DNA of 64,000 nucleotides from Acidimicrobiales bacterium (GTDB lineage Bacteria > Actinomycetota > Acidimicrobiia > Acidimicrobiales > Aldehydirespiratoraceae). Positions 7,530 to 43,288 of the stretch are shown one piece after another. Under the pieces are notes generated by a model, which was not told where the DNA came from, did no database searches, and saw nothing but the letters and a program-made list of their open reading frames with translations. Position 1 is the stretch's first letter. Every line of letters starts with the position of its first letter. The position numbers were made by a program, and so were the translations under genes. The DNA lies in the NCBI GenBank assembly GCA_965116195.1, contig OZ220491.1, forward strand, positions 1,085,080 through 1,149,079, in the 5' to 3' direction.

Positions 7530-8389
7530 GTGGGTTGTCCCAGGGCGTCCACATCGGCTGCGAACAGCGCTCCGGAGTTGGGTTCGCCGCTGGTGTCGAT
7601 GCCTGCTATCGGATCACGAGCGGTGGTGACATACAGCGTGGCCAGGTCGGGTCCGCCGAAGCAGCAGCATGTGGTCTGCGGTGCTTTTGGCGTTACCACC
7701 TTCTGCATCCGCTCGCCGTCGGGTGAGAACTGCTGCACACCGAAGCCGCCGAAGAGCGCCACCCACAGACAGCCGTCAGCATCAACTGTCATCCCGTCCG
7801 GCAGACCGCTGCTGCCGTCAAAGGTATGGAAAGGTCGCCGTCGGTCAATGGCTCCGCTGTCGGGGTCATAGTCGAACTGGTCAATGCGGAACGTCAGGGT
7901 GTCAATGTGGTACATGGTTGAGCGGTCGGGACTCCAGCCGATGCCATTGGAGATGCGCACCTCCTCAAGCACTCGTTGCACGTTGTGGTCGCCGTCCACG
8001 CGATGCAGAGCTCCGACAGGCGAGCCGTCGTCGGCACCGTTCATCGTTCCCTGGAACAGCCTCCCCTCAGGGTCCACGGCACCGTCGTTGGTGCGGTTGG
8101 ATGCCGGTTCATCCGGCAGGTTGATAGTCACCTCAATCTCATCGGCCTGGTTGGTGAGGGCCACCGAAGCCCCCAGGCCCAGGGCCAAGCCCCCGCCGAC
8201 ACGGGGAGCCACATTGCTGACCGTGTTGTCGTAGCGCACCACGGACACCGGCCGGCTCGAAGCATGGTCAAAGCGATGCAGCGCTCGTCCGGTGATGTCC
8301 ACCCAGAGAAGCAGTTCCTCCACCGGTGACCACACACAGCCTTCGCCCAGTTTGGCTTCGGCTGCATGGACAACTTCTGCGTTGATCAT
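7511..8389 (-). CDS. SMP-30/gluconolactonase/LRE family protein
   Basis: Part of ORF 7511..8689. The start MINAEVVHAAEAKLGEGCVWSPVEELLLWVDITGRALHRFD was chosen at ATG 8389 (SD AGAGG). Beta-propeller-like repeats are present. Confidence 0.8.
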   Translation of the reverse strand: MINAEVVHAAEAKLGEGCVWSPVEELLLWVDITGRALHRFDHASSRPVSVVRYDNTVSNVAPRVGGGLALGLGASVALTNQADEIEVTINLPDEPASNRTNDGAVDPEGRLFQGTMNGADDGSPVGALHRVDGDHNVQRVLEEVRISNGIGWSPDRSTMYHIDTLTFRIDQFDYDPDSGAIDRRRPFHTFDGSSGLPDGMTVDADGCLWVALFGGFGVQQFSPDGERMQKVVTPKAPQTTCCCFGGPDLATLYVTTARDPIAGIDTSGEPNSGALFAADVDALGQPTNLFAG

Positions 8390-8426
8390 TGCTCTGGACC
8401 TCTGCTGATCATTGCTCTGGACCTCT
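8384..8426. repeat. 23-bp direct duplication of SD plus ATG of the SMP-30 gene
   Basis: GATCATTGCTCTGGACCTCT at 8384-8403 and 8407-8426. Confidence 0.9.
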
Positions 8427-8842
8427 ACGTCTGTTTTGGCAGTATTCGATGGCTCTGGCACCCGGTGGCATCTGAACCCGATGACTCTGGCTGGGTGACT
8501 TGGTAAGCGTCCGTGTATCATCGTCTGTCTGTCGTCGTCTGTCAATCGTCGTCTGTCAATCGTCGTGGCGAGCGTATACTTCAAACTCGTTGATGTCCGC
8601 ATGACTGCAATGGGGGTGGCGCATCTGTCATACGCACCAGAGCAGGGGCACCGAGTACTTGCCGCACGACTGCAATACGGGTGGCGCATCTGTCATGCGT
8701 CGTGGCGAGCGTACACTCCGAAGCACAATCGGTGTAGCCGTGACGCAGTGAGCGAAAAGCGTGGGCGATGTAGAACAGTGTCCGGTTGCGGCGAACCCGA
8801 GCAAGAATCCCAGTAGCAGCCTCAACACAGGAGCAACAGACA

Positions 8843-10078
8843 ATGAGCGATCAACATTCAGGCGATCAGCATCCAAGCGATCAGCATCCAGGCGAGCGGT
8901 ACACGATCATCTCGTCGGACTGTCATGCCGGCGGGAACATGGCCGCCTACGAGGAGTATCTTGATCCGGCCTGGCGCGAGGAGTTCAAGGCCTGGCGGGG
9001 TGCCTACCGCAATCCTTACCGTGATCTGCAAGATGACGGACGCTCCCGCAACTGGGACGACGACCGGCGGCTTGCTGAGCAGTACGACGACGGCATCGTG
9101 GCCGAGATCACCTTCCCCAACACCGTGCCGCCGTTCTATCCGACCGGAGCGCTGGTGGCTCGTCCACCCACTGACCGCAGCGACTACGAGCGGCGCTTGG
9201 CGGGGATCACCGCGCACAATCGTTGGCTGCGTGACTGGTGCGCTCGCTATCCCGACCAACGCTGTGGTCTGCCCCAGATATTCGCCGAGGACGTTGACGA
9301 CGCCGTTGCCACTCTGGAATGGGCCGCAGCGGAGGGTTTTCGCAGTTTCCTTTTGCCGCATATTCCGCCCGATGTTGGGCTGCCCGGTTACTGGGACCCG
9401 TGTTGGGATCGTCTCTGGGCAGCAGTGTCTGACCTGGACCTGGTGGTGACCCAGCACGGCGGCAACGGCGGCCCCAACTATGGCAAAGCACCGGCTGCCG
9501 GTGTGATCTTTTTGATGGAGGTGCCGTTCTATGCGCACCGCAACCTGGCTCATCTGATCATGTCGGGGGTGTTTGAGCGCTTTCCCGAGCTGCGTTACGT
9601 GATGACCGAGCAGGGTGTGGCCTGGCTGATCGAGGAGTTGCGCCGCATGGATGGCTATCACCGTCAGATGCGCGCAGGTCGTGTCGGTGAGTTGGGCTTC
9701 GCGGCAGACATCGTGTTGCCGTTGAAGCCGTCGGAGTACTTTGACCGCAATGTGTGGATAGGTGCCAGTTTTCCGTCGCCGGGTGAAGCTGAGGCTATCC
9801 GCAAGGTGGGCGTACACAAGGTGATGTGGGGCAGCGACTACCCGCATCACGAGGGCACTTATCCGTACTCGCTGGAGAGCCTCCAACGGGCGTTTTGCGA
9901 CTGGAGTGCCGAGGACATGCGTACTGTGCTGGCTGGCAACGCGGCTGAGCTTTACGGCTTTGACCTGGACAGGCTCGCTCCTCTGGCAGCAGCGCACGGC
10001 CCCACTGTGGAACAGGTGGCCACGCCACTGGCCGAGATACCGTCCAAGGCAACCAGCCCGGCCTTCTTCAAGCCGTAA
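8843..10078 (+). CDS. Amidohydrolase-2 (ACMSD-like) family metal-dependent hydrolase
   Basis: ORF 8786..10078. ATG 8843 with AGGAG upstream. Motifs IISSDCHAG and WGSDYPHHEG. The N-terminus has a 15-bp duplicated GDQHP(S/G) unit. Confidence 0.8.
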   Translation: MSDQHSGDQHPSDQHPGERYTIISSDCHAGGNMAAYEEYLDPAWREEFKAWRGAYRNPYRDLQDDGRSRNWDDDRRLAEQYDDGIVAEITFPNTVPPFYPTGALVARPPTDRSDYERRLAGITAHNRWLRDWCARYPDQRCGLPQIFAEDVDDAVATLEWAAAEGFRSFLLPHIPPDVGLPGYWDPCWDRLWAAVSDLDLVVTQHGGNGGPNYGKAPAAGVIFLMEVPFYAHRNLAHLIMSGVFERFPELRYVMTEQGVAWLIEELRRMDGYHRQMRAGRVGELGFAADIVLPLKPSEYFDRNVWIGASFPSPGEAEAIRKVGVHKVMWGSDYPHHEGTYPYSLESLQRAFCDWSAEDMRTVLAGNAAELYGFDLDRLAPLAAAHGPTVEQVATPLAEIPSKATSPAFFKP

Positions 10079-10084
10079 GCACTC

Positions 10085-10262
10085 CGTGAGGCGGCACTTC
10101 GTGGGCAGATGCATGACATCGTGTTGCTGTCGCAAGATGCAACAATGAGCAGCGCATTGTGAGGCGCATCATCAAGGGACACGAGTTCCAACAAGCGGCC
10201 AGTCGCAAGATGCAACAATGAGCAGCGCATTGTGAGACGGCACTTCGTGGGCAGCGCTTCGT
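10085..10262. repeat. 73-bp mosaic tandem repeat x ~2.4 ending on the GTG start of the arylsulfatase gene
   Basis: TCGCAAGATGCAACAATGAGCAGCGCATTGTGAG occurs at 10130 and 10203. GGCACTTCGTGGGCAG occurs at 10093 and 10239 (146 = 2 x 73). CTTCGTG is reused at the start codon 10261. Confidence 0.8.
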
Positions 10263-12876
10263 GACTGATCCCACCGGGGCCTACGCGGGCTTCGGGGGCA
10301 CCGTCGGCAAGGTCTTTTCCGCCTCCGAGCCTGATTGGCCGGTACCGCCCACGGCTCCTGATGGTGCTCCCAATGTGATCGTGATGATGGCTGATGACCT
10401 CGGCTATTCCGATCTGGGCTGCTATGGCTCCGAGATCAACACTCCCGAACTTGACCGGCTCGCCTCAGAAGGGTTGCGTTACACCGACTTTCATGTCAAT
10501 CCCATGTGCTCACCCACCCGGGCGTCTTTGCTGACCGGACTCAATCATCACATGGCTGGCATGGCAACTGTTCCTCACAGCGACCCCGGCTTTCCCGGCT
10601 ATGCCCACGAGTTGCGCGAGAACACGGTCACCATGGCCGAGGTGTTGCGTGATGCGGGCTGGGCCACTTTCATGGTGGGCAAGTGGCATCTCACCAAGGA
10701 TGCTCACCTCAGCGACGGTGCTCCCAAGTCGAGTTGGCCTCTGCAACGGGGCTTTGATCGCTATTACGGGATTTTGGATGCTTTCACCAACTTTCATCAG
10801 CCTCATCGTCTTTACGAGGACAACCACCACCTCAACGTTGATCAATACCCCGATGACTATTACTTCACTGATGATCTGACCGATCAGGCTTTGCGAATGG
10901 TTGATGAACTGCGGTCATCGCATCCGACCCGACCGTTTTTCATGTACTTCTCTCATGGGGCTGTGCATGCTCCGCTGCAGGCACCTGCAACGGATATTGA
11001 ACTGTTCCGGGGTCGCTATGACGCGGGCTGGGATGTGTTGAGAGCCGAGCGCTTCCAGCGTCAGAGGCAGTTGGGTGTGGTGCCTCCTCACGCTGTGCTG
11101 CCGCCGCGCAACGCCGAGGAGTTGCACGAGGCCGGTGCCTGGGATGATCTTGATGCTCGCTCCAGAGAGTTGTTTGCCCGCTATATGGAGGTGTACGCGG
11201 GCATGGTTCACAATGTTGATCGCAACTTCGGTCGCCTGCGCCGACATCTTGAAGCCGTCGGCGAGTGGGACAACACGATTGTGCTGTTCACCAGTGACAA
11301 CGGCGGCTCCCGTGAGGGTCAGTACACCGGTACCTCCGCGTATTTCCGAACTCTGCTCACGCAGGTGCGCTCGACGGGTCTGGAAGATGTGGCTGTTGAC
11401 CACGAGCGTATTGACATGCTGGGTGGCCCGCGTGCGTTGGCTCATTATCCGATGGGTTGGGCGATGGTGTCATGCACACCGTTCCGGCTCTACAAGATCA
11501 ACACTCACCGGGGTGGTCACAGTGTGCCCTTCATCCTGCACTGGCCGGCACGCTTCGAAGCCGGAACTGGAGTTGGGGTTGGTGCCGCAGCCGGAGTTGG
11601 GGGTGGTGCCGCAGCCGCAACGGGAGTTGAAGATGGTGCCAGAACCCAAGCCGGAGTTGTTGCCGTAGTTGGTGTGCAAGCCGGACCTGGAACTGGAGTT
11701 GAAGTTGGTGCCGGAGCAGTAGTTGAAGCCGACGTTGGAGTTGGAGCGGCAGCCGGAACTGGAGTTGAAGGTGGTGCCAGAACCCAAGCTGGAGTTGTAG
11801 TGGGTGGCCAAGCCGAAACTGGAACAGGAACCGTAGTCGGAGAGGTAGTCGGCGACGGTTCGTTGGCTGGGGGGATACGTACCCAGTACCAACATGTGAC
11901 CGACGTGTTGCCGACCGTGTGTGAGTTGGTTGGCGTGGCAGTGCCGCGTACCCGTCACGGTGTGGCTGTGCCAGAGCCGGCCGGGGCCAGTTTTGCGATG
12001 ACCCTGCACGATGCCACCGCGCCCTCCACCCATCCCGAGCAGTACTACGAGATGATCGGGCATCGTGGCTATTACCGTGATGGTTGGTCTATCGTCACCT
12101 GTCACCGGCCACGCCGGGCTTTCAGCGACGATCACTGGGAGTTGCACAACCTCGCCGATGACCCGACCGAGTCGGTGGACCTGGCTTCTGAATATCCGGA
12201 CAAACTCCAGGAACTTGAGCAGGCCTGGGACGCGGCGGCCTGGGCCAATCAGGTTTACCCGTTGGATGAGGGCAATTCGCTCAAGATGATCCTGCGGCCT
12301 CCGTGGTATCAACAGTGGGCAGCCGAGACGAAGTTGCGGCCTGGAACGCCCACCCTGGAGCGTTGGCGATCCCAGCAGCTGATCTTTCAGAAGAATTTTG
12401 ATGTTGATGTGGCATTGCGTTGGCGGCCCGGTGACTGTGGCATGCTCGTGGCCCATGGCGATCAGGGAGGCGGTTATGCGCTGTATGTCGAGGATGACTG
12501 CCTGATGTTTGTCCACAACGCATACGGTGATTTGACCACTGTGAATTGTGGGTTGGTGCCTACGGGTGCCTCGAAGGTGTGTCTGGCGATGGAGAACCCC
12601 GGCAATCTTGTCTGGAACGCACGGCTGAGTGTGGACGGTGAGCCGGTGGGGGAGGCCCGGGGTTTGGTGTCACTGATGGCGATGGCACCTTTTGAGGGCA
12701 TTGATGTGGGGATTGACCGCCGTTCTCCTGTCAGCTGGGATGTCTATGAACGTCACGGCCCCTTTGCCTTTACAGGTGATCTGCACTCGGTTACCTACCG
12801 CCCGGGCGAACTCGCCCCTGATGCCGGTTCGTTGTGGCTCGACTACATTCGTTCCACCGGCACTCGTTACGAGTAG
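10261..12876 (+). CDS. Arylsulfatase (formylglycine-dependent, CSPTR motif) carrying a ~105-aa repetitive insertion
   Basis: 871 aa. VIVMMADDLGYSDLGCYGSE...NPMCSPTRASLLTG. The Gly/Val/Ala-rich insertion is at 11561-11875. Confidence 0.88.
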   Translation: MTDPTGAYAGFGGTVGKVFSASEPDWPVPPTAPDGAPNVIVMMADDLGYSDLGCYGSEINTPELDRLASEGLRYTDFHVNPMCSPTRASLLTGLNHHMAGMATVPHSDPGFPGYAHELRENTVTMAEVLRDAGWATFMVGKWHLTKDAHLSDGAPKSSWPLQRGFDRYYGILDAFTNFHQPHRLYEDNHHLNVDQYPDDYYFTDDLTDQALRMVDELRSSHPTRPFFMYFSHGAVHAPLQAPATDIELFRGRYDAGWDVLRAERFQRQRQLGVVPPHAVLPPRNAEELHEAGAWDDLDARSRELFARYMEVYAGMVHNVDRNFGRLRRHLEAVGEWDNTIVLFTSDNGGSREGQYTGTSAYFRTLLTQVRSTGLEDVAVDHERIDMLGGPRALAHYPMGWAMVSCTPFRLYKINTHRGGHSVPFILHWPARFEAGTGVGVGAAAGVGGGAAAATGVEDGARTQAGVVAVVGVQAGPGTGVEVGAGAVVEADVGVGAAAGTGVEGGARTQAGVVVGGQAETGTGTVVGEVVGDGSLAGGIRTQYQHVTDVLPTVCELVGVAVPRTRHGVAVPEPAGASFAMTLHDATAPSTHPEQYYEMIGHRGYYRDGWSIVTCHRPRRAFSDDHWELHNLADDPTESVDLASEYPDKLQELEQAWDAAAWANQVYPLDEGNSLKMILRPPWYQQWAAETKLRPGTPTLERWRSQQLIFQKNFDVDVALRWRPGDCGMLVAHGDQGGGYALYVEDDCLMFVHNAYGDLTTVNCGLVPTGASKVCLAMENPGNLVWNARLSVDGEPVGEARGLVSLMAMAPFEGIDVGIDRRSPVSWDVYERHGPFAFTGDLHSVTYRPGELAPDAGSLWLDYIRSTGTRYE

Positions 12877-12879: not shown

Positions 12880-13245
12880 CATGTGCGCGGCGTGCAAGTT
12901 GTTGGTCGGTCGGTTGCTCTGCTCGGTGGGGGCCGGACAACCCAGTGACACTTGTGCGCGGCGTGCAAGTTTGTTGGTCGGTCGGTTGCTCTGCTCGGTG
13001 GAAGCGGTGCAACCTGGTGACACTTGTGCGCGGCGTGCAAGTTTGCCCGTCAGTCGGTTGCTGTGCTCGGTGGAAGTGGTGCAACCTGGTGACACTTGTG
13101 CGCGGCGTGCAAGTTTGTTGGTCGGTCGGTTGCTCTGCTCGGTGGGGGCCGGACAACCCAGTGACACTTGTGCGCGGCGTGCAAGTTTGCCCGTCAGTCG
13201 GTTGCTGTGCTCGGTGGAAGTGGCGCAGTTGTCTGCGGCCGAGTC
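12880..13245. repeat. 72-bp tandem repeat x 5 (two alternating variants)
   Basis: CTTGTGCGCGGCGTGCAAGTTT occurs at 12951, 13023, 13095 and 13167, plus a leading copy. This accounts for all the overlapping ORFs between 12670 and 13289. Confidence 0.92.
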
Positions 13246-13355: not shown

Positions 13356-13420
13356 GGAGGCGTGTGATGCACATCGGTTATTCTGTCGGGCACGGAGGTG
13401 TGTGATGCACATCGGTTATA
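13356..13420. repeat. 38-bp duplication of SD + ATG + first 5 codons of the acyl-CoA dehydrogenase gene
   Basis: GGAGG(C/T)GTGTGATGCACATCGGTTAT at 13356 and 13394. Confidence 0.9.
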
Positions 13421-14607
13421 CCGCCGAGCAGGAGGCGCTGCGTCAGGAGTTGCGCGCCTACTACGATGAGTTGCTCACTGACGAGGTGCGTGAGGCACTT
13501 GGTGCCGAGGACGGTACCGGTCCGGTGCATCGCCGTCTGGTGCGTCAGATGGGTACTGACGGGTGGCTGGCTGTGGGTTGGCCGCGGGAGTATGGCGGCA
13601 GGGGACTGTCCGCAGTGGAGCAGTTCATCGTGTTTGACGAGTCCGTGGCGTTGGGTGCGCCGATCCCGATGCTCACCATCAACACGGTCGGCCCCACCAT
13701 CATGCAATACGGAACCAGCGAACAAAAGGAGTTCTTCCTGCCCCGGATTGCCGGCGGCGAACTTACTTTTTGCATCGGTTATTCCGAGCCGGATGCCGGT
13801 ACTGACCTGGCCTCGCTGAGCACCAAGGCGGTGCGTGACGGCGACAGTTATGTGATCAACGGCCAGAAGACCTGGACATCTCTGGCCAAGGATGCTGATT
13901 ATATATGGTTGGCGGCCCGTACCAATCCGGATGCTCCCAAACACAAGGGAATATCATTGTTTTGTATTCCCATGGACACTCCTGGTATCAGTCTTGAGCC
14001 GCTTGATCTGTTGTCGAGCCACAACATCAACCACACATTCTTTGACGACTGCCGGGTGCCGGTGTCAACGTTGATTGGTGAGCAGAACCGTGGCTGGGGC
14101 CTGATCACCAGCCAACTCAACCGGGAGCGGGTCACTATTTGTTCGTCGGGTATGGTTACCAAGCGTTTTGAGGAGTGCGTGGAGTGGGCCAAGTCCGCCA
14201 AGCGCGCTGATGGTTCTTATGTGATTGACGAACCGTGGGTGCAGCGCAACCTGGCTGAGGTAGCGGCAAAGTTGGAGTTCTTGCGACTGGCCAACTGGAA
14301 GGTGGCTTGGACGGTGGCCACCAAGATTGACGGGGCTGAGCCTGACATGGCCACCATTGCCGGGTTCGTGGCTGACTCGTCGGCTGTGAAGGTGTCGGGT
14401 ACGGAGTTCTTTGTGGATGCTTACCGCAAGTTGATGCAGGTTTACGGTCAGCGTTCCTACGTGGTGGAGGGTTCGCCGGGTTATCTCACACGTCTGGAGA
14501 TGCTGTACCGCTCCACGATCATCTTGACTTTTGGTGGAGGCACCAACGAAATGCAGCGTGATCTGATCTCACAGTTCGGTCTGGGCTACCCGCGTGCGTC
14601 CCGGTGA
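13405..14607 (+). CDS. Acyl-CoA dehydrogenase
   Basis: In-frame part of ORF 13327..14607, starting MHIGYTAEQEALRQELRAYY. ACAD-like motifs: GYSEPDAGTDLASL, GQKTWTS, TFGGGTNEMQRDLI. Confidence 0.88.
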   Translation: MHIGYTAEQEALRQELRAYYDELLTDEVREALGAEDGTGPVHRRLVRQMGTDGWLAVGWPREYGGRGLSAVEQFIVFDESVALGAPIPMLTINTVGPTIMQYGTSEQKEFFLPRIAGGELTFCIGYSEPDAGTDLASLSTKAVRDGDSYVINGQKTWTSLAKDADYIWLAARTNPDAPKHKGISLFCIPMDTPGISLEPLDLLSSHNINHTFFDDCRVPVSTLIGEQNRGWGLITSQLNRERVTICSSGMVTKRFEECVEWAKSAKRADGSYVIDEPWVQRNLAEVAAKLEFLRLANWKVAWTVATKIDGAEPDMATIAGFVADSSAVKVSGTEFFVDAYRKLMQVYGQRSYVVEGSPGYLTRLEMLYRSTIILTFGGGTNEMQRDLISQFGLGYPRASR

Positions 14608-14635: not shown

Positions 14636-14832
14636 TTCAACATTGGCACCCACATCGTCTCTGTAGTGGTATGTCCTGATGGTTCTTGGTGTCCGGGATC
14701 ATTTGGCCTCGATGATGATGATGCCGTAGCGCTTTCAACATTGGCACCCACATCGTCTCTGTAGTGGTATGTCCTGGTCGTTCTTGGTGTCTGGGATCAT
14801 TTGGCCTCGATGATGATGCCGTAGCGTTGTTG
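14636..14832. repeat. 98-bp tandem repeat x 2 including the last ~12 codons plus stop of the HTH gene
   Basis: TTCAACATTGGCACCCACATCGTCTCTGTAGTGGTATGTCCTG occurs at 14636 and 14734. ATCATTTGGCCTCGATGATGATG appears in both copies. Confidence 0.9.
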
Positions 14833-15069
14833 GGCTGCTTGCGCGGATGTGCCGAGTAGTTCTCCGATGCGCTGCCAGGAGAGACCCGTGGCCCGGGCGG
14901 TGGCAACGGCATTGACGATCTGACGCTCGCCACGAGCGCGGGCGAGTGCGGCGCGTTCGAGGAGGTATTCCTCAACGGGGCGCTCGTCGTCGGGCTGGGG
15001 TTCGTAGTCCTCGAACCGGCAGGCGAGTTCGTCGGCATGGTCAAGGATCTCTTGAATGGACTTAGGCAT
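14797..15069 (-). CDS. Small helix-turn-helix protein (function unknown)
   Basis: 90 aa. The C-terminal GLSWQRIGELLGTSAQAAQQRYG resembles a sigma-70 region-4/HTH fold. Confidence 0.55.
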   Translation of the reverse strand: MPKSIQEILDHADELACRFEDYEPQPDDERPVEEYLLERAALARARGERQIVNAVATARATGLSWQRIGELLGTSAQAAQQRYGIIIEAK

Positions 15070-15210: not shown

Positions 15211-16620
15211 ATGGATTTTGAGCTTGGCGAGGAGCAGCAGGCCATCAAGAGTCTGGCCGCGCAGGTGTTGAGTGATCTGTCTTCACATGAACGGCTGAAG
15301 GCTCTGGCTGCTGAAGCAGATTTTGTGGATCGCAAGGCGTGGGCAGCACTGGCCTCAACGGGTGTCGTGGGTGCCTCGGTGCCTGAGGCCCATGGCGGTC
15401 TGGGGCTGGATTTCCTGGCGACGGCAGTGGCGTTGGAGGAGGTGGGGCGCAGCGCCTCTGTGGTGCCGTTGCTGACAACAGCCGTGATGGGTGCCATGCC
15501 GATAGCAGCCTTCGGCACGCCTGCGCAGCGCCAGCTGTGGCTGCCCGGCATCGCCGATGGTTCGGTACTGGCCTGCGCAGCCTTGGCCGAAGACGGCACC
15601 ACCCCAACAGATCCAACCACAACCGCCCGCGTTGACGTTGACAGCCGCCCTCATGGCGGTCTCGCGGGTGCCGGTGCGGTGGGGTCGTCCACAACGGCTC
15701 ATGCTGACGCTGGCGTTGATGTTCGCAAGGGTATTGCAGATGCTGGTGGAGTGGGGTCGTCCACAACCGTTCGCAATGACACCGATAGTCGTGCATGCCG
15801 GAGTCTCTCGGACGAGGGTGAAGTGGAGTTGCCCACAACCGTCCGCGTTGACGTTGACAGCCGCTCTCGTGGCGGTCTCGCGGGTGCTGGTGAGGTGGGG
15901 TCGTCCACAACTGCCTACTCCGATACTGGTGGAGGGTTCGTGTTGGACGGCACCAAGGTGTTGGTCGCAGGTGGACTTGACGCTGATGTGGCGTTGGTAC
16001 CGGCGCGGTTGGACACGGGTGAGGTGGGCGTGTTTGTGGTGCCGACCAGTGCGACTGGCTTGAGAATCCGGCCGGTGGAGATCACAACGGGACGTTCTGA
16101 GGCTCGTTTCGAGTTGTCAGGAGTGCGTGTGGGCGGGGACGCACTGCTGGGTGCTGGCGCGGTTGACGGCGAGGACATCGTGCAGTTCATTGAGGACAGG
16201 GCCAATGTCGGGCTGTGCATGAAGATGGCGGGAGCGGCAGGAGCGGCCATTGAGTTGGCTGCGGACTACACCAAGCAGCGTCAGCAGTTTGACCGGCCCA
16301 TCGCCACGTTCCAGGCGGTCAGCCAGCGTGCCGGTGACTCCTACATTGATGCCGAGGCCATCTGGTTGACCGCCTACCAGGCCGCCTGGCGCTTGTCAGC
16401 AGGTCTACCTGCCGAGCGCGAGATCGCCATCGCCAAGTACTGGGCCTCAGAAGGTGGGTACCGAGTGGTCCACGCAGCAGTACACGTACACGGCGGGGTG
16501 GGCGTAGACCGCGACTACCCCCTGCACCGGCACTTCCTGGCTGCCCGCCACATCGAACTCACCCTCGGCCACGCCGAAGAGCAGCTAGCCAACCTAGGCC
16601 ACCAAATCGCCTCGTCATGA
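15211..16620 (+). CDS. Acyl-CoA dehydrogenase with ~110-aa repetitive insertion
   Basis: 469 aa. ACAD-like N- and C-terminal parts (FELGEEQQAIKSLA...; YTKQRQQFDRPIATFQAV...). The insertion at 15600-15935 has a 216-bp internal repeat. Confidence 0.85.
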   Translation: MDFELGEEQQAIKSLAAQVLSDLSSHERLKALAAEADFVDRKAWAALASTGVVGASVPEAHGGLGLDFLATAVALEEVGRSASVVPLLTTAVMGAMPIAAFGTPAQRQLWLPGIADGSVLACAALAEDGTTPTDPTTTARVDVDSRPHGGLAGAGAVGSSTTAHADAGVDVRKGIADAGGVGSSTTVRNDTDSRACRSLSDEGEVELPTTVRVDVDSRSRGGLAGAGEVGSSTTAYSDTGGGFVLDGTKVLVAGGLDADVALVPARLDTGEVGVFVVPTSATGLRIRPVEITTGRSEARFELSGVRVGGDALLGAGAVDGEDIVQFIEDRANVGLCMKMAGAAGAAIELAADYTKQRQQFDRPIATFQAVSQRAGDSYIDAEAIWLTAYQAAWRLSAGLPAEREIAIAKYWASEGGYRVVHAAVHVHGGVGVDRDYPLHRHFLAARHIELTLGHAEEQLANLGHQIASS

Positions 16621-16685: not shown

Positions 16686-17198
16686 ATGCGTGGCTTGAGC
16701 GTCTTGAGACGTAGATTACGATGCAATGGGAACATTGTGGGACAAGGTGATATATGTCCCAACACGGACGCTAAAGGCGGTGAGGCTATCGAGTTGAGAA
16801 CTCGTGATGCTGACGAGCTGGCGTGTAAGTTGGCTTACGAATGTGCGTGGCGACTGTGCGACGACGCACTGAAAACCCTTGAGTCTCAGCGAACCCGAGC
16901 CGTCGCCTTATTGTCGCTAACAATAGTGGCGGCTGGTATTGTTGCATCTTCACTCTTAAGGGCCAATATAATTGATGATGTTGGCGCTATTGGCGTTATG
17001 GGGATGATGGCCTTCGGCCTCAGTACACTGGTCATAATGGTGTGTGCGGCAATAGTAGCATGGCCGCTAGACACAGAGACTGCCTTACGCCCCTCGCAAA
17101 TAATAGCTAACTATGTCAATCCATATAAAGGTGTCGAAGTAAGGCATGGATTTATAGATGTCTTGCACGCGACATGGAGACTGCCTACGACAAGATGA
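16686..17198 (+). CDS. Small multi-pass membrane protein, probably frameshifted (reading continues in another frame to 17302)
   Basis: 170-aa ORF with hydrophobic helices (AVALLSLTIVAAGIVASSLL, GVMGMMAFGLSTLVIMVCAAIVAW). Frame +2 from ~17162 reads LARDMETAYDKMKEKLNTRYACYRSAVAFVPVANVGVAMLVFDVLT-stop. The sequence is A/T-richer and lies directly upstream of hsdM. Confidence 0.45.
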   Translation: MRGLSVLRRRLRCNGNIVGQGDICPNTDAKGGEAIELRTRDADELACKLAYECAWRLCDDALKTLESQRTRAVALLSLTIVAAGIVASSLLRANIIDDVGAIGVMGMMAFGLSTLVIMVCAAIVAWPLDTETALRPSQIIANYVNPYKGVEVRHGFIDVLHATWRLPTTR

Positions 17199-17632
17199 AA
17201 GAGAAACTCAACACACGGTACGCTTGCTACAGGTCGGCCGTCGCATTTGTCCCCGTTGCCAATGTCGGAGTTGCTATGCTGGTGTTTGATGTCCTCACCT
17301 AGAGACTCTCCAGAACGTCCGCCCGATCCTGAAGGCCCGCCGCCATCGAACGAACAGGTGACACGGGATGGATCGGGTGACGATCGGCCTTTGATGCGTC
17401 AGTAGTCTTGTAGGCAAGCCCACTTGCCCGAATGTTGGTCTGTCCGGGTCCAATAGTTACCGTATCTACATAGGTTGCTATGTGGTGAGCCTATATGCTG
17501 TCTACATCTAGTGGCAGGAGTTGTCCAACGGTGCTGCCTTGGCGTGAATGCGTGACGTGAACGCGTAAGTCGGCGAAGGTGCTCTGGTTGAGGAACATCG
17601 GCGAGCTCCACCGCTTGCGGTATGCTGATCCG

Positions 17633-31497: not shown

Positions 31498-31603
31498 GCT
31501 TGGCAGAGTTGGCGTTTTGCCGGGTTTGAGCGCAATGGAAGCGCCTGCGATGGAGTCCGGGCATCTGCGCGCAACCGGAAGCGGAGTACTGCTCAGGTCG
31601 AAT

Positions 31604-31708
31604 GCGGTGGAAACCGCCCAATCAGTCCGTCAATTCAACTTGGCGGGCTTGGAAAGGCGGCACCCTAGCGAAGCGGTGGAAACCACCCGATCAGTCCGTC
31701 AATTCAAC
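31604..31708. repeat. 36-bp repeat x 2 with a 33-nt spacer (period 69)
   Basis: GCGGTGGAAACC(G/A)CCC(A/G)ATCAGTCCGTCAATTCAAC at 31604 and 31673. Confidence 0.85.
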
Positions 31709-31966
31709 CCGCCCTGATGGACCTCATTTTGGAGGTTGAAAGCCGTAGGTCACAGTACACACGCTCATGCAACGACTGCAAGTGGCCCCAACTTGGCAAG
31801 CTCAAGAACGCCCGCCAGCGCACCTTGAAGGGCATGAACGCCCTCGCAAAGCACAATTTGGCAAGGAGGTGCGCGATTAACCCATTTGGCTCATAGGGTG
31901 CCGTCAAGATACGCGTCGCTGCGCGTGTCGCTGGCAACTAGGACACAACCACAAAGGAGTCCACCG

Positions 31967-32470
31967 ATGGCCGTAACCGATGAACTGCTGTCCAACAATG
32001 CAGGCTATGCCGAGAACTTCGACAAGGGTGAGCTGCCCCTCCCGCCTGCGCTCGGGCTGGCTGTCGTGGCGTGTATGGACGCGCGTCTGGACACGCACGC
32101 GTTGCTCGGCATCAGCGAAGGGGACGCTCACGTGATCCGCAACGCCGGGGGCGTTGTGACCGATGATGTGATCCGTTCCCTGACGATTTCGCAGCGCCTG
32201 CTACAGACCAACTCAGTCATGCTCATCCATCACACGGACTGCGGCATGCTCACCTTCCGCGACGATGATGTGAAGGACTCGATCACCGCCGACACAGGCA
32301 TTCGGCCGACCTTCTCAATGGAAGCGTTCCAAGACCTTGATGACGACATCAGACAGTCGATTGCCCGCATCAAGGCGAGTCCGTTCATCCCGAACAAAGA
32401 CGACATCCGCGGGTTTGTCTACGACTGCGCAACGGGCAGGCTGAACGAGGTCACACAACCAGCGACCTGA
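31967..32470 (+). CDS. Beta-class carbonic anhydrase
   Basis: In-frame part of ORF 31886..32470. AAAGGAG SD. Motifs VVACMDARLD and HHTDCGM (Cys-His-Cys zinc ligands). Confidence 0.9.
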   Translation: MAVTDELLSNNAGYAENFDKGELPLPPALGLAVVACMDARLDTHALLGISEGDAHVIRNAGGVVTDDVIRSLTISQRLLQTNSVMLIHHTDCGMLTFRDDDVKDSITADTGIRPTFSMEAFQDLDDDIRQSIARIKASPFIPNKDDIRGFVYDCATGRLNEVTQPAT

Positions 32471-32992
32471 AGCGCTTGGAACAAGCCACGGCGACTACCG
32501 TTGTTGCTGCGGGTTCAATGAGGTCACACAACCGGCGACTTGGAGCGCTTGGAGCAAGCCACGACGGCTACTGTTGTTGCTGCGGGTTCATTGAGGTCAC
32601 ACAACCGGCGACTTGGAGCGCTTGGAGCAAGCCACGGCGACTACTGTTGTTGCTGCGGGTTCATTGAGGTCATACAACCGGCGACTTGGAGCGCTTGGAG
32701 CAAGCCACGGCGACTACTGTTGTTGCTGCGGGTTCATTGAGGTCATACAACCGGCGACTTGGAGCGCTTGGAGCAAGCCACGGCGACTACTGTTGTTGCT
32801 GCGGGTTCATTGAGGTCATACAACCGGCGACTTGGAGCGCTTGGAGCAAGCCACGGCGACTACTGTTGTTGCTGCGGGTTCATTGAGGTCATACAACCGG
32901 CGACTTGGAGCGCTTGGAGCAAGCCACGGCGACTACTGTTGTTGCTGCGGGTTCATTGAGGTCATACAACCGGCGACCTGGAGCGCTTGGCC
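32447..32992. repeat. 73-bp tandem repeat x 7.5; the first unit is the 3' end (EVTQPAT-stop) of the carbonic anhydrase gene
   Basis: GAGGTCA(C/T)ACAACC occurs at 32447, 32520, 32593, 32666, 32739, 32812, 32885 and 32958. Only the first copy keeps CCTGA (stop); the others read CTTGG. Confidence 0.95.
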
Positions 32993-33223
32993 CTGAGCCA
33001 GGATGAAGCAGACCGAGGTCATGTAACCGGGGCACGCCAAAGGCTCCGAGGGTCAGAAGTCCAGAAGGCCAGAAGGCCAGAAGGCAGGAAGGTCAGTGTC
33101 TTCCCAGCAAGGCGGATATAAGCCTTCAGCCCCGAAGTCCGTGCCGGAAAGACTGGTGATGACATCCGAAGGCTCGGAAGTGTCGGCGATGACGCAAAAT
33201 GTGGGTAGTCCGTGGTGGCTCCG

Positions 33224-34030
33224 CTACCGGGGTTGGTCCGCGGGGCGGTAGTCGATGTTGCGATCCACGGCCATATAGATGTCGTTACCGATGGGATCGG
33301 CCAGTTCTTCGGCGAGGTGGCCCAGCAGACCTGCGCAGCGTGCCAGTAACGCCACCCCACGGGTCACGCCCAAAGGCAGGCCCACATCGGCGAGAACTGC
33401 CCCGCAGGTACCGGCCCCGTTCAGGGGCAGCTTCCTGGAAAGCACAGCGGGATGGACGCGCCCGATGGCCGCGAACAACTCCAGGTGAGGGCCGAACAGA
33501 TCGTTCCGGCGGGCCAACTTGAACAGTACCGGCGTGCGAGGATCGCCTTGTTTGTGTACCGGGTGTCCCAGGCCAGGCACGAACCGACCCGAGGCTCGGG
33601 TCTCGCTGACGACTTTCGTGGCCAGAGCGTCCCAGCCGTCATCATCGCTGGGCAGCCGGTCACAGCCATCAAGCGCGGTGTGCAGGAAACGAGCCGCGTT
33701 CTCGGTCACTCCCAGAAAGCGGTCACCACCCCCCAACAGACCGGACGCGAGCGCTCCCTGGATCGACTCGGGCGCGCTCAGCAGCGTCACCCTCGCGGCG
33801 ATGGCGGTGGGGGTGAAGCCGTGGTCGGCGAGGGCGACCAGCACAGCCTCAAACATGTTGCGCTGCTGGGGCGTGGGGCGTCGCTTGGCCATGAGCCAGT
33901 AGGCAAGTTCACCAAAGGACACCTGGCCCATGAGTTCATCAGCCAAGCTGTGACCCAGCACGGTGATGCTGTCGGCATCAGAGACACCGAGGCCGGTGCG
34001 GTAGGCGGGGGTTGCGGGAGTCATGGTCAC
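33224..34030 (-). CDS. Citrate synthase-like / citryl-CoA lyase family protein
   Basis: 268 aa. Motifs GLGHPVHKQGDPR and LNGAGTCGAVLADVG. Confidence 0.7.
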   Translation of the reverse strand: MTMTPATPAYRTGLGVSDADSITVLGHSLADELMGQVSFGELAYWLMAKRRPTPQQRNMFEAVLVALADHGFTPTAIAARVTLLSAPESIQGALASGLLGGGDRFLGVTENAARFLHTALDGCDRLPSDDDGWDALATKVVSETRASGRFVPGLGHPVHKQGDPRTPVLFKLARRNDLFGPHLELFAAIGRVHPAVLSRKLPLNGAGTCGAVLADVGLPLGVTRGVALLARCAGLLGHLAEELADPIGNDIYMAVDRNIDYRPADQPR

Positions 34031-34245
34031 AGCCCGCTTCGATAGGCAAGGGTTGTGGTGGTCATGGTCATGAGCCTGTTGCTGTGGGCGGGGTTTGTGG
34101 GAGTCATGGTCACAGCCCGCTTCGATAGGCAGGGGTTGTGGTGGTCATGGTCATGAGCCTGTTGCTGTGGGCGGGGTTTGTGGGAGTCATGGTCACAAAG
34201 CCCGTTGCAGTAGGCAGGAACCTGTCGGTGATCGTCAGTCACTCT
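34018..34245. repeat. 83-bp tandem repeat x ~2.7 copying the start codon and first ~12 codons of the citryl-CoA lyase-like gene
   Basis: GAGTCATGGTCAC occurs at 34018, 34101 and 34184. Confidence 0.92.
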
Positions 34246-35434: not shown

Positions 35435-35587
35435 GGCAGGCCTTCTGTGCGGACAGTTGGCAGCGTGAGATCACGGTCAGACTCAAGGTCGTCGCTCCAG
35501 GTGAACCCGTCGGCGTAGGCAGTGGGCATTGTGAAACCATGCAAAGACTTGAGGTGGGCGTGCGGCAATGTTTGCTGAACGTAGGCA

Positions 35588-38357: not shown

Positions 38358-38700
38358 GGCGCAACAGAGTTCCCGCAACTTGTCAGGGCGAGGGACGAAG
38401 GCATGACAACCAGCAAGTGGGGTCTGCTTGGGCGCGACAAAGCTCCGGCAATTTGTCAGGGTGAGGGTTCTGAGTGCGTTGGCTGGCTTTCTGGGAATAG
38501 AGGGCGCAACAGAGTTCCCGCAACTTGTCAGGGCGAGGGACGAAGGCATGACAACCAGCAAGTGGGGTCTGCTTGGGCACTACAAAGTTCCCGCAATTTG
38601 TCAGGGTGAGGGTTCTGAGTGCGTTGGCTGGCTTTCTGGGAATAGAGGGCGCAACAGAGTTCCGGCAACTGTCAGGCTGAGGGCCGAGGGCCTCAGGCCG
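38358..38700. repeat. 145-bp tandem repeat x ~2.3 (internally two ~72-bp half-units); the last copy runs into the 3' end of the intradiol dioxygenase gene
   Basis: GGCGCAACAGAGTTCC occurs at 38358, 38503 and 38648. The half-unit CCGCAACTTGTCAGGGCGAGGG / CGGCAATTTGTCAGGGTGAGGG is offset by 72. Confidence 0.9.
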
Positions 38701-39590: not shown

Positions 39591-40739
39591 TCAACCCTCA
39601 ACACCCGGGCCGACGAGCCTTCGTCGTACCGGAAAGAACTGCACCGGCCAGTACCTCTGGAGCAGTCCATAGATCCCTTTCGGAGCCAGGACTGCCATGA
39701 CCGCCGCGATCAGGCCAAGAATGATGAAGCGCCACTCGTCAGCATCTTCAAGCAGTTCACGTAAGAACCAGTAAACGCCCACTCCGATGATCGGGCCGGT
39801 GGTGGAACCGACGCCACCGATGATGGCGATGAACACCACCAGGGCGGTCCAGCGCAGCACACTGAAAGAAGAGTCGGCGCGTGCTGACGGGTTCTGCAGC
39901 AGTATCACCGCGCCGGTCATGCCGGTCCAGAAGGCCGCGAGCACCCAGACGGCCAACTTGGCCCGAGTCACCGACACGCCCAGACCCCGGGCACCTTCCT
40001 GACTGTCACGTATGGAGCGCAGAGCCAGACCCAGCCGTGACCGCAGCACCAGGACAACAATGGCCGTGGCCCCGGCAGCCAACCCGAGTGCCATCAGATA
40101 TGTGACGGTGTTGCGGGTGTCCAGGGAGTATCCGCCCAGCGATTCACGGGTCATGCTGCGGACATTTGAGCCTCCCAGAAAGTCACTCTCCAATGTGATC
40201 AGACGGAAGACCTCGGCGATCACCCAGGTACCGATGGCGAAGTAGCCGCCCCGCAGACGGAATGCCAAAGCTGCCACCGGCAGTGACAAGACGGCAGCAA
40301 CCACGCCTGCGAGCAGCACCGAGAGGTACGGGTCCACGCCGAAGTCCTCGGCGAAACTGAGCAGCGTGTAGACCCCGATGCCCACGAACATCTGCTGTCC
40401 GATTGTGACCAGACCGGCGAAACCGGCCAGCAGGTTCCACATCTGCGCCAGGGCCAGGTAGTAGAGGATCGTCACCAGTGGCACACGCAGACTGCCGTCG
40501 CTGTCCCACCACGGCAACAGGAACAGAAGCACGAACAACCCGCCAAACACGAACAATCCGACGGTGGATGGTCGGTCTGAGCGGGTGATGCGATGCTCGG
40601 CTATCTGAGGCTCGGTCATCTGATGTTCGGTCAGTTGATGCTCGTTCCCTTGATGTTCGGCCAGTTGATGCTCGTTCCTTTGATGCCCGGTCAACTGATG
40701 CTCGTTCCCTTGATGCCCGGTCATCTGATGTTCGGTCAT
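39591..40739 (-). CDS. Branched-chain-amino-acid-type (Liv) ABC transporter permease, LivM-like, with N-terminal decapeptide repeats
   Basis: 382 aa. ATGA overlap with the upstream permease stop. The multi-TM body is preceded by an (E/G)HQ-rich 30-bp repeat region. Confidence 0.85.
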   Translation of the reverse strand: MTEHQMTGHQGNEHQLTGHQRNEHQLAEHQGNEHQLTEHQMTEPQIAEHRITRSDRPSTVGLFVFGGLFVLLFLLPWWDSDGSLRVPLVTILYYLALAQMWNLLAGFAGLVTIGQQMFVGIGVYTLLSFAEDFGVDPYLSVLLAGVVAAVLSLPVAALAFRLRGGYFAIGTWVIAEVFRLITLESDFLGGSNVRSMTRESLGGYSLDTRNTVTYLMALGLAAGATAIVVLVLRSRLGLALRSIRDSQEGARGLGVSVTRAKLAVWVLAAFWTGMTGAVILLQNPSARADSSFSVLRWTALVVFIAIIGGVGSTTGPIIGVGVYWFLRELLEDADEWRFIILGLIAAVMAVLAPKGIYGLLQRYWPVQFFPVRRRLVGPGVEG

Positions 40740-41614
40740 TGCTGTCTGCGGCCCATCAGTCCGGTGGGCTTGGTGGCGAGCACCACAAGAAACAAGAGAT
40801 GGCCGAGCAGAGGCCCGGAGCCGAAGCCGTAGCTGACCTCCAACTGTCCTCCGACGGTATGGGCCACACCCAGAAGCAGGCCACCCGCCAGGGTGCCCCA
40901 GATCGATCCGAGCCCACCGATGACCACCGCCTCAAAGGCATACAGCAACTGCGCAGGTCCGTCGAGTGGTCCGAAGCTCTGCCGGATCCCCAGAAAAACG
41001 CCGGCTATGGCCACGGTGGCGAAGGCGATACCCATGGCCACTGCGTAGAGGTTGCGGTCGTTGATCCCCATCAGTCGGGCGGTCAACGGGTCATCCGACA
41101 CGGCACGGAAGGCTCGGCCCAGTGCCGTGCGTGACAGCATCAACTGAAGCCCGAGCAGCACTGTCACAGCCACAGCCAGGGTGATGAGCGGAATCCAGCC
41201 GACCGCGATGGCATCGGTGATCCTGATGCTCTCAACCTCGATTGCGCCCGCGTCAAGCCCCCGTGAGTCGGCGCTGTAGGTCTCCAACAGCGCGTTCTGC
41301 ACAACGATTCCCAACCCGAACGTCACCAGGATGGAAGGCAGGGGGTCGGCACCGATGGTGAAATTGAAGGCACCGAGTTGCAGCGCGTATCCGGTGGCCA
41401 GCATCAGCGGCACGACCACCACCAGTGACACGAACGGATTGAGACCGAGCCACGAGGTGACCGACACCGACACGAAAGCGCCCAGGACGGCCAAGTCTCC
41501 ATGGGCCAGGTTCACGAAGCGCATCACCCCGAAGGCGAGCGAGAGGCCTGTGGCGAACAGCGCGAACAGTCCTCCGAGCAGTACTCCCTGCACGATGGCG
41601 TTGAGCCACTCCAT
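40736..41614 (-). CDS. Liv-type ABC transporter permease, LivH-like
   Basis: Part of ORF 40736..41875. Start MEWLNAIVQGVLLGGLFALFATGLSLAFGVM. The start overlaps the stop of the upstream ATPase ORF (TGATG). Confidence 0.85.
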   Translation of the reverse strand: MEWLNAIVQGVLLGGLFALFATGLSLAFGVMRFVNLAHGDLAVLGAFVSVSVTSWLGLNPFVSLVVVVPLMLATGYALQLGAFNFTIGADPLPSILVTFGLGIVVQNALLETYSADSRGLDAGAIEVESIRITDAIAVGWIPLITLAVAVTVLLGLQLMLSRTALGRAFRAVSDDPLTARLMGINDRNLYAVAMGIAFATVAIAGVFLGIRQSFGPLDGPAQLLYAFEAVVIGGLGSIWGTLAGGLLLGVAHTVGGQLEVSYGFGSGPLLGHLLFLVVLATKPTGLMGRRQQ

Positions 41615-42486
41615 CAGATTTGATCCCAGGGAGTATGCCGAGACTGCTGAGTTCGGTGAACTGCTGAGCCGGTTGAGTCGGCCAAAAGTGCCGAGCCTGC
41701 TGAGTCGCCCAATTCGGCTGAGTCGGCCAAGTCGGCTGAGTCGGCCAAGTCGGCAACGCTGGTCGTGACAGCGGAGTTGTTCCCGGCAGGCAGTCCGAAG
41801 TAGGCGGCGGTGATGTCTGAGCGTTCCAGGTTCTGGGGACGACCTTCCAGGGTGATCCGTCCCTCCAGCATGCACACCACCCGGTCAGCTACCGCCATGG
41901 CCTGCCCTATGTCCTGCTCAACCAGCAAAATGGTGGCACCGGCTTCCGACAGTGCGGGCAGTGCTCCGTAAAGTGACTTGACAACCACCGGCGCAAGCCC
42001 CAGAGAGACCTCGTCAAGCAGGATCAGCCGAGGATTGGACATGAGTGCTCGGCCGATGGCGACTGCCTGCTGTTCGCCTCCCGACAGGACATGGGACTGA
42101 CGGTTCAGCAGCGGTTGTATCAAGGGAAACACGTCAAGCACGGAATCAAGGCTCCAGCCACCCGGGCGGCTGCAGTGGCTGCCGATAATCAGGTTCTCGC
42201 GCACGGTCAGGCTTCCGAAGAGCATGCGACCTTCGGGAACCAGGGCGATCCCCAGCCCGACACGCCGGTAAGCCTTGACGCGGCCGATGTCAGTGCCGTC
42301 GAAGGTGATTTCCCCGGCTCTGATGCGTACCTGTCCGGCCAGTGCGCGCAAAAAGGTGGTCTTGCCCGCACCGTTGGCACCGATCATGGCCAGCGTCTCA
42401 CCTTCAGCAACGCTCACATCAATTCCGAACAGGGCCTGGAAGTCGCCGTAGCCCGCGTCCAGACCGCGCGCCGCCAGCAGCGTCAT
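41614..42486 (-). CDS. Liv-type ABC transporter ATP-binding protein, LivF-like, with a repeat-derived ~50-aa C-terminal tail
   Basis: Part of ORF 41614..42549. MTLLAARGLDAGYGDFQALFGIDVSVAEGETLAMIGANGAGKTT (Walker A), LSGGEQQ, LLDE. An alternative GTG start is at 42549. Confidence 0.85.
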   Translation of the reverse strand: MTLLAARGLDAGYGDFQALFGIDVSVAEGETLAMIGANGAGKTTFLRALAGQVRIRAGEITFDGTDIGRVKAYRRVGLGIALVPEGRMLFGSLTVRENLIIGSHCSRPGGWSLDSVLDVFPLIQPLLNRQSHVLSGGEQQAVAIGRALMSNPRLILLDEVSLGLAPVVVKSLYGALPALSEAGATILLVEQDIGQAMAVADRVVCMLEGRITLEGRPQNLERSDITAAYFGLPAGNNSAVTTSVADLADSADLADSAELGDSAGSALLADSTGSAVHRTQQSRHTPWDQI

Positions 42487-42559
42487 TCCGGTGCCATCCC
42501 CGAAAAGACCCTTGTGGCACACCGAGGGATGTTGAGGCCGATGTTGCACGGCAGCAGCG

Positions 42560-43288
42560 TCATTCTGGTGCCACCCCCAGATAGACCTCCTGCACCTCGG
42601 CGCTGGCCATCACGGTCGTCGGGTCGCCCTCAGCGATCTTGATGCCGAAACTCATGGCCATGATCTTGCTGACCACTGCCAAAAGGGCATGCACGATGTG
42701 TTCAATCCAGACGATGGTCACACCGTCAGCATGGATGTCGCCGATGGTGGTGACCAACTCAAGCACCTCGGCTTCGGTCAGGCCTCCGGCGATCTCGTCA
42801 AGCAAAAGTATCTTGGGACGCGTCGCCAGCGCCCGCGCCAACTCCATGCGCTTGCGACCCAGCAGGGGCAGCGCGCCGGCAGTGGTGTTGGCAGCCTCCA
42901 ACAACCGGGCCCGCTCAAGAGCCTCCACTGCCACAGGGGTTGCGTTGGTTTCTGACATGGGCGTACCCGCGCCGAAGACCGCTCCCACCAGGACATTCTC
43001 AAACACGGTCATGCCCTCAAAGGGTCGAGGAACTTGTGACGTTCGGGCCAGACCACGCCGACAGCGCCAGTCAGCCGATGTCTTTGTCACATCTTCGCCC
43101 TCGATGAGGATTGAGCCGCGGTCACAGCTCAGATCGCCTGCAACAAGGTTGAGCAGGGTTGTCTTGCCGGCCCCGTTGGGCCCCACGATGCCAAGCGCGT
43201 CACCCTGCTTGACCTTGAAGGACAGGTTGTCCACGACCTTCACGCCGAAGGACTTGTCAACTCCGGCCACCTCCAGCAGCGGGGTCAT
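42560..43288 (-). CDS. Liv-type ABC transporter ATP-binding protein, LivG-like
   Basis: 242 aa. GPNGAGKTT, and LELARALATRPKILLLDEIAGGL (signature region plus Walker B). Confidence 0.88.
   Translation of the reverse strand: MTPLLEVAGVDKSFGVKVVDNLSFKVKQGDALGIVGPNGAGKTTLLNLVAGDLSCDRGSILIEGEDVTKTSADWRCRRGLARTSQVPRPFEGMTVFENVLVGAVFGAGTPMSETNATPVAVEALERARLLEAANTTAGALPLLGRKRMELARALATRPKILLLDEIAGGLTEAEVLELVTTIGDIHADGVTIVWIEHIVHALLAVVSKIMAMSFGIKIAEGDPTTVMASAEVQEVYLGVAPE

Follow-up and report, generated by a model that had tools for sequence, protein, structure and literature searches.

We analyzed a stretch of 64,000 nucleotides (nt) from an Acidimicrobiales bacterium (contig OZ220491.1; hereafter, the window) in which four genes are preceded by a mini open reading frame (mini-ORF) whose stop codon overlaps the gene's own start codon. 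In each case, a segment carrying the start codon has been duplicated, and the upstream copy of the start opens the mini-ORF. From comparisons with related genomes, we consider it probable that these mini-ORFs are by-products of rampant local tandem duplication, filtered in such a way that chains of translation stay unbroken. What the sequences show directly is that start segments were duplicated, how the copies relate in frame, that overlaps are ancestral, and that one of the bridging ORFs is conserved. A more ambitious proposal would be that tandem duplication at gene boundaries occurs so often in this clade that selection for unbroken stop/start chains steadily gives rise to de novo "relay" mini-ORFs and preserves them; we regard this as possible, but doubtful.

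The original prediction for this DNA had named four mini-ORFs, and all of them translate as it described, with exact coordinates and overlaps. Their repeat periods of 23, 38, 77 and 83 nt (cases 1 to 4, respectively) were recovered by independent repeat scans. When we scanned for repeats that include a start codon, these four were exactly the set in the window whose period leaves a remainder of 2 on division by 3 (2 mod 3). All four, as well as a serial copy in case 4, have a stop/start overlap of the form NUGA or URRUG on the same strand. The mini-ORFs and the genes that they adjoin are as follows.

8386 to 8412, minus strand: mini-ORF 1, encoding MISRGPEQ followed by a TGA that lies inside the ATGA of the real start (ATG at 8389)
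7511 to 8389, minus strand: SMP-30/gluconolactonase-like gene, 292 amino acids (aa) (Pfam PF08450, E=1e-78)
13367 to 13405, plus strand: mini-ORF 2, encoding MHIGYSVGHGGV followed by a stop with a 1-nt TGATG overlap with the acyl-CoA dehydrogenase start
13405 to 14607, plus strand: acyl-CoA dehydrogenase gene, 400 aa (Pfam)
42483 to 42563, minus strand: mini-ORF 3, 26 codons, from the ATGA at 42563 (livG stop) to the ATGA at 42486 (livF start)
42560 to 43288, minus strand: livG, ABC ATPase, 242 aa (Pfam), whose stop overlaps the start of mini-ORF 3
41614 to 42486, minus strand: livF, ABC ATPase, 290 aa (Pfam)
34027 to 34113, minus strand: mini-ORF 4a, 28 codons, from the GTGA at 34113 to the GTGA on the lyase-like start at 34030
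34110 to 34196, minus strand: mini-ORF 4b, 28 codons, an upstream serial copy whose stop lies on the start of mini-ORF 4a
34027 to 34242, minus strand: alternative bridging ORF, 71 codons, from a GTG 8 nt inside the end of the CoA-transferase gene to the lyase-like GTGA
33224 to 34030, minus strand: citrate-synthase-fold (citryl-CoA-lyase-like) gene (Pfam)

Judging from a protein tree and from nucleotide identities, the window's source is an Acidimicrobiia genome of the family Aldehydirespiratoraceae that is sister to the metagenome-assembled genome (MAG) OZ242020.1. The two are sister taxa with 100% bootstrap support in a concatenated tree of 12 proteins (3563 aa positions), and the window is 75-87% identical in nucleotide sequence to syntenic loci in MAGs labelled Candidatus Aldehydirespirator/Aldehydirespiratoraceae and Acidimicrobiaceae. 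Below, L001 and L164 denote loci of the sister genome, and L003-L009, L081, L082, L083 and L163 denote loci of other relatives.

The window is unusually rich in local repeats: 52 repeat loci were found by Tandem Repeats Finder (TRF) and a dot-plot scan, covering 12.4% of the sequence, versus 1-4 per 10 kb in most relatives and 2 in a shuffled window. Its guanine-plus-cytosine (GC) content is 60%, versus 66-71% in relatives. Local tandem duplications of 14-145 nt lie at nearly every gene boundary (examples are at 6623-6726, 12882-13220, 24694-24886, 29152-29332, 32447-32990, 38358-38691 and 57026-57262), and the sites of the arrays correspond to short or overlapping junctions in relatives, with spacers of 204 versus -4, 445 versus 2 and 528 versus 24 nt. 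In an all-against-all comparison, 16 array consensus units shared no similarity beyond chance matches of 8-9 nt; in alignments, the units are instead recognizable as copies of an end, 5' or 3', of the gene next to them. The copies are local and arranged head to tail, and array lengths differ between close relatives, as expected of slippage-type variable-number tandem repeats. This load suggests a lineage-specific rise in the rate of duplication or a relaxation of selection. Selection on the reading frame is nonetheless visible in the repeat periods, which are divisible by 3 at 14 of the 15 repeat loci within coding sequence, whereas intergenic arrays fall into all three classes modulo 3. Examples of in-frame repeat insertions are found in the sulfatase gene (11563-11854; periods of 24, 30 and 66) and in the second acyl-CoA dehydrogenase gene (15603-15928; period of 72); the orthologues in L081 and L082 have neither.

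The most informative of the four cases is the junction between livG and livF. Comparison of the sequences shows that mini-ORF 3 goes back to an ancestral junction with a stop/start overlap, of which 77 nt were duplicated in tandem long ago. The repeat is not clean: only about 30 nt are recognizably duplicated, and TRF missed it, but the upstream copies still show traces of the 5' coding sequence of livF. In L001, the junction likewise has two ATGA sites 77 nt apart around a 26-codon ORF. The other relatives (L003-L009, L083 and L163) have a plain 4-nt livG|livF overlap, ATGA or GTGA, and since all of them retain it, the duplication dates from the ancestor that the window shares with L001. A metagenome scan with LivF recovered a single close relative, which also has a plain ATGA overlap.

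Since that ancestor, the interior of mini-ORF 3 has diverged almost completely. Its 52 nt are 27% identical between the window and L001, which is near the random level, and the encoded peptides are unrelated (MTLLPCNIGLNIPRCATRVFSGMAPE in the window and MSLPEVPPGDGAAVRTPETGPEAARR in L001). However, both species have kept its length, its open frame and the ATGA overlap at either end. The livG-livF spacer is 73 nt in both genomes and is the sole spacer of unchanged length among the 12 positive spacers that we measured; for the remaining 11, the lengths in the two genomes are 24 to about 1700 nt apart. These observations point to purifying selection that keeps the length and frame of the bridge, but not its peptide.

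Insertions have also occurred elsewhere in the liv operon. The C-terminus of LivF has a 55-codon in-frame repeat extension (approximately 41617-41784) that keeps the ancestral TGATG overlap with livH, and the start of LivM carries the following feature.

40600 to 40739, minus strand: N-terminal in-frame 15-nt repeats of LivM, MTEHQ-like, about 9 copies, with the ATGA overlap with the livH stop kept at the first copy

L001 has a different, 78-nt in-frame insertion at the same position of LivM. The stop/start chain of the window is therefore unbroken at all three liv junctions despite insertions of 77, 165 and 135 nt.

At the junction between the CoA-transferase gene and the lyase-like gene, the ancestral state is also a 4-nt overlap (a spacer of -4 in L001, L003 and L007). 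The 83-nt array in the window has 2.4 copies, and there is consequently room for the second serial mini-ORF, 4b. Each 83-nt unit is itself a 41+42-nt sub-repeat of the gene's first 41 nt or so, and both copies share this structure. Relatives that gained a spacer at this junction evolved GGAG-type sites.

The two shortest duplications lie before genes whose starts are well supported. For the SMP-30 gene, the start is backed by 292-aa orthologues in L081 and L082, in which the start is also ATGA, so this context is ancestral. Mini-ORF 1 derives from a 23-nt tandem duplication (8383-8426) of a Shine-Dalgarno-like region plus ATGATCA; the unit is GCAGAGGTCCAGAGCAATGATCA, in two copies on the minus strand. 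The acyl-CoA dehydrogenase start is fixed by its closest homologues, which are 400 aa long and up to 94% identical. Mini-ORF 2 derives from a 38-nt duplication that holds GGAGG, the ATG and the first 5 codons of the gene. Relatives lack both this duplication and a TGA at the start of the gene, and the TGATG is therefore derived there, the only such case of the four. Cases 1, 2 and 4 are all absent from relatives, and with copies that are 86-100% identical they look young.

We compared the pairing of each real start region with the anti-Shine-Dalgarno sequence to a random-position median of -3.0 kcal/mol. The values were -7.0 (case 1), -13.3 (case 2), -7.0 (case 3) and -4.7 kcal/mol (case 4). 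Across the two copies, pairing was -7.0 in both copies for case 1, and -9.3 and -13.3 for case 2. A strong independent ribosome-binding site is thus lacking in case 4, borderline in cases 1 and 3 and present in case 2, and coupling is clearly unnecessary for case 2 only. Because this strong Shine-Dalgarno sequence lies inside the 38-nt unit itself, mini-ORF 2 is most likely a young neutral by-product, and mini-ORF 1 may be of the same kind.

To place the four cases in context, we took a census of the repeats in the window of which both copies contain a start codon. It yielded periods of 23, 38, 77 and 83 nt that are 2 mod 3, periods of 66 nt (IclR), 15/30 nt (LivM) and perhaps 57 nt that are divisible by 3, and one period of 184 nt (mpa/arc) that is 1 mod 3. 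The features not yet described are the following.

35522 to 35578, plus strand: upstream ORF (uORF) of 18 codons created by the 66-nt duplication upstream of IclR
50089 to 50286, plus strand: mpa/arc uORF, 65 codons, which crosses the real GTG at 50273 and stops 11 nt inside the gene
10086 to 10264, plus strand: amidohydrolase-sulfatase spacer, 182 nt, with 73-nt repeats, where relatives have a GTGA overlap

The IclR case behaves as had been claimed, with an 18-codon uORF that stops 9 nt before the GTG at 35588. The accompanying generalization, that the remaining 5' duplications have periods divisible by 3, is correct for IclR and LivM, but it overlooked the mpa/arc duplication. Similarly, a cited 63-nt case (47818-47909) is indeed an in-frame N-terminal duplication; however, it is internal, and the repeated segment has no start codon. 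The same description applies to a 15-nt repeat at 8847-8895, which had not been cited. A repeat with a distance of 32 nt at 44776 was considered as a fifth case and rejected, because it is a duplication of a 3' end that spans a stop codon, and the real start is at 44725.

The leader of mpa/arc, which encodes a proteasomal ATPase, consists of 5-6 units of 61/62 nt (49923-50272), each with a Shine-Dalgarno-like GCAGGAGGTGAC. The start region, GGTGAGCGGCT, recurs as an exact 11-nt copy at a distance of 184 nt upstream that covers three such units, and the 65-codon uORF begins at this copy. Two leader units (AAAGGATGTGAC) also occur in the sister genome as a 62-nt duplication (L164, positions 9918-10000), and therefore the array is older than the split between the two genomes.

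An independent instance of a 2 mod 3 duplication is found at trmI in L001, where ATGAGCGAGCGG is copied 149 nt upstream and opens a 50-codon uORF ending on ATGA; within this uORF (4049-4201), the trmI start region has given rise to in-frame repeats of 36 nt. Scans of the relatives for further start-spanning duplications that are not in frame recovered only livF and trmI of L001.

The amidohydrolase-sulfatase spacer can be tiled by five NTGA-linked ORFs that end on the sulfatase GTG at 10261, an arrangement of low statistical weight. Potential junctions occur at about 1.8% of plus-strand positions and 1.5% of minus-strand positions, and we estimate that an overlapping NTG is present at roughly half of random stops. 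We therefore rejected NTGA-linked chains as a statistic, given that equally long chains are found on antisense strands.

Other features of the window concern its repeats and gene content. Some arrays are nested, with old, diverged sub-periods inside young, near-identical longer periods (41+42 in 83; 72+73 in 145; 35/38 in 73; 15 in 30 in 60), and the arrays with higher-order structure are at 33993-34215, 38358-38691, 29152-29332 and 40592-40740. Where the spacer of L001 measures 13-23 nt, the window carries an inserted 1.7 kb (31499-33236), with a carbonic-anhydrase-like ORF at 31967-32470 and an array of 73-nt units (7.5 copies, 97% identity). A small DUF6362-like gene (14797-15069, minus strand), which relatives lack, lies between the two acyl-CoA dehydrogenase genes, and a 98-nt duplication (14636-14818) extends across its 3' end. 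A lower-GC island (16700-27050; 55-56%) encodes a type I restriction-modification system (hsdM at 17579-19777, hsdS and hsdR) and a DUF222/HNH gene. Within hsdM is an unbroken in-frame G19 tract (18689-18707), a possible site of phase variation, and a G15 tract is located at 1889-1903. Long repeats of the trinucleotide type (GGT/AGT/CGT) occur at 284-460 and 1375-1454, near the left edge of the window, within ORFs that have no Pfam match.

We propose that the mini-ORFs could have arisen as follows. Local tandem duplications would pile up at gene boundaries and survive only where no gene is broken. When the duplicated unit includes a start codon, the downstream copy would stay on the gene, and the upstream copy would open a new frame. 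A period divisible by 3 would then produce an N-terminal extension or a short uORF, and a period that is 2 mod 3 would place the upstream start in the +1 frame. At livG|livF and CoA-transferase|lyase, ribosomes finishing the upstream gene might reinitiate on the mini-ORF, stop at the overlap that follows and start again on the real gene, such that coupling would outlive a spacer that would otherwise abolish it. At the second of these junctions, the chain leading onto the GTGA start could be formed either by the 71-codon ORF or by the two serial 28-codon ORFs.

It is important to consider how much of this geometry is arithmetic, and several observations weigh against a filter for unbroken chains. 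Two sequence forms alone permit a stop codon to share nucleotides with a start, NTGA with the stop at +1 and TRRNTG with the stop at -2, and both belong to the +1 frame. For the upstream copy of a start to lie in this frame, a period of 2 mod 3 is both necessary and sufficient. The period class and the overlap of stop with start hence count as a single observation; the former is an arithmetic precondition of the latter and adds no coincidence of its own. The required context is also common. In relatives, 29 of 54 called starts are in an overlap-type context (16/33 in L081 and L082; 13/21 in L164), since genes in the operons of this lineage normally adjoin through stop/start overlaps of 4 nt or 1 nt. 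With about half of the lineage's genes starting in such a context, a mini-ORF should often end on the real start. Indeed, when we simulated random start-spanning tandem duplications in four loci, 46-53% of those with a 2 mod 3 period ended the mini-ORF exactly on the real start. Given this base rate, the occurrence of the overlap in 4 of 4 cases has a p-value of about 0.05-0.08. Moreover, where a duplication spans an ancestral overlapping junction, the overlap is a logical certainty and the mini-ORF is necessarily open: it fuses the downstream gene's 5' end to the upstream gene's 3' end, and each part is read in its own frame.

Further points on the same side come from individual loci. Among the 6-8 start-spanning duplications of the window, a set too small for the purpose, there is no significant frame bias, and the mpa/arc uORF, which runs over the real start, is a counter-example with a 1 mod 3 period. 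NTGA-linked chains of similar length arise by chance on antisense strands. The acyl-CoA dehydrogenase gene has a strong Shine-Dalgarno sequence of its own, and that of the SMP-30 gene is moderate, with a value equal to that of livF. Finally, the conservation of the bridge concerns one locus and one sister genome.

Most of these points are what would be expected if the mini-ORFs were purely neutral by-products without function, i.e., if duplications merely happened to include starts, and the geometry followed from arithmetic and from the common NTGA/TGATG context. The young appearance of cases 1, 2 and 4 fits this explanation as well. However, a purely neutral origin does not readily account for the retention in a sister species of the 77-nt length and of both overlaps when the interior is at random-level identity and 11 other spacers have changed, nor for the unbroken chain at all three liv junctions, nor for the lyase-like start that has no Shine-Dalgarno sequence. 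We therefore consider it somewhat unlikely. Selection for coupling, as put forward in the original prediction, is plausible at the two operon-internal junctions, whose ancestral state is a 4-nt overlap and whose downstream starts pair poorly or not at all with the anti-Shine-Dalgarno sequence, and the conserved 77-nt bridge agrees with it; as a general claim it is weakened by the base rate of about 50% and by the lack of frame bias in the window.

It had also been suggested that the mini-ORFs could be leader peptides with a regulatory use. In such a role they might work through attenuation, or through stalling in response to the supply of a metabolite or amino acid. Their position directly upstream of metabolic and transport genes would suit such a role. 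However, the peptide of mini-ORF 3 is not conserved between the window and L001, and the sequences merely copy the ends of neighbouring genes. No Rfam leader or riboswitch was found in the window, in which a tRNA-Leu gene (anticodon TAA; 4042-4127) is the sole Rfam/ARAGORN match. None of the predicted folds was more stable than those of shuffled sequences (z-scores of -1.7 to +0.8). Based on the Rfam and folding results, we dropped the idea of a structured RNA or riboswitch, and we regard leader peptides as very unlikely. An artefact is extremely unlikely as well. In principle, assembly indels or misplaced starts could make N-terminal repeats with periods divisible by 3 resemble 2 mod 3 uORFs, and the genome appears to be a long-read MAG, as the contig names of the relatives also suggest for their assemblies. 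However, a second, independent genome has the 77-nt period too, the same 41+42 structure is present in both 83-nt copies, gene lengths equal those of orthologues exactly (400 aa and 292 aa), and long ORFs are intact even across the G19 tract.

Another explanation would be a mobile, dispersed repeat family that targets start codons and carries a coupling ORF, like mycobacterial interspersed repetitive units (MIRUs). The MIRUs at senX3-regX3 are reportedly 77 and 53 nt in size, both 2 mod 3, and the former is the same as the unit at livG|livF. The 77-nt unit at livG|livF and the 83-nt unit at CoA-transferase|lyase do resemble MIRUs in their size (40-100 nt) and in their place at operon junctions, and each encloses an ORF with overlaps onto the stop before it and the start after it. 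However, the 16 array consensus units are mutually dissimilar, and each copies the end of its adjacent gene. The units thus lack what defines the MIRU family, a dispersed consensus, and we consider a mobile family of this type exceedingly improbable.

The preferred reading therefore remains that of local duplication by-products that have passed a filter for unbroken translation chains. If the relay proposal were also to hold, MIRU-like coupling elements and new uORFs would have an endogenous, non-mobile source, and the proposal would predict a genome-wide frame bias of start-spanning duplications, together with bridges that are conserved in length and free in sequence. It would show how operons tolerate insertions between coupled genes and would explain in simple terms how overlapping uORFs and MIRU-like ORFs evolved. 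The many independent duplications would then amount to a natural experiment on coupling selection in uncultured bacteria. Even without any function, the proliferation of tandem repeats is striking, and the imprint of reading-frame selection on it is clear.

Among known systems, bacterial leader peptides and regulatory uORFs resemble the mini-ORFs in being short ORFs directly upstream on the same transcript, but the mini-ORFs have no conserved peptide, run of regulatory codons or attenuator structure. The closest analogue is provided by MIRUs such as those at senX3-regX3, which, like the repeats in the window, are actinobacterial tandem units of tens of nt at operon-internal starts, with a small ORF that has a 4-nt overlap. 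They differ in belonging to a dispersed family with a shared consensus that is thought to be mobile, whereas each array in the window has its own sequence, taken from an adjacent gene end; the hosts also differ (Mycobacterium versus Acidimicrobiia). MIRU ORFs overlap both flanking genes and couple at -4 nt, and this overlap has been interpreted as letting the insertion persist without disturbing downstream expression (PMC12548453).

The geometry of the mini-ORFs (ATGA, GTGA and TGATG) is identical to that of termination-reinitiation at NUGA/URRUG sites, whose downstream starts often have no Shine-Dalgarno sequence. Such coupling is widespread, including at overlapping uORFs in M. tuberculosis (10.1101/2022.06.01.494293), and it requires overlap, as a spacing of about 20 nt abolishes it (PMC10666635). 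Chains from uORF to gene and from uORF to uORF have been described (10.1101/2022.06.01.494293; PMC6728339; PMC10666635). Known coupled uORFs have been described as static, whereas those in the window were visibly created by the duplication of junctions, and one of them can be traced across a speciation. Our finding thus belongs with the known coupled uORFs and MIRU ORFs, as a variant that is generated locally.

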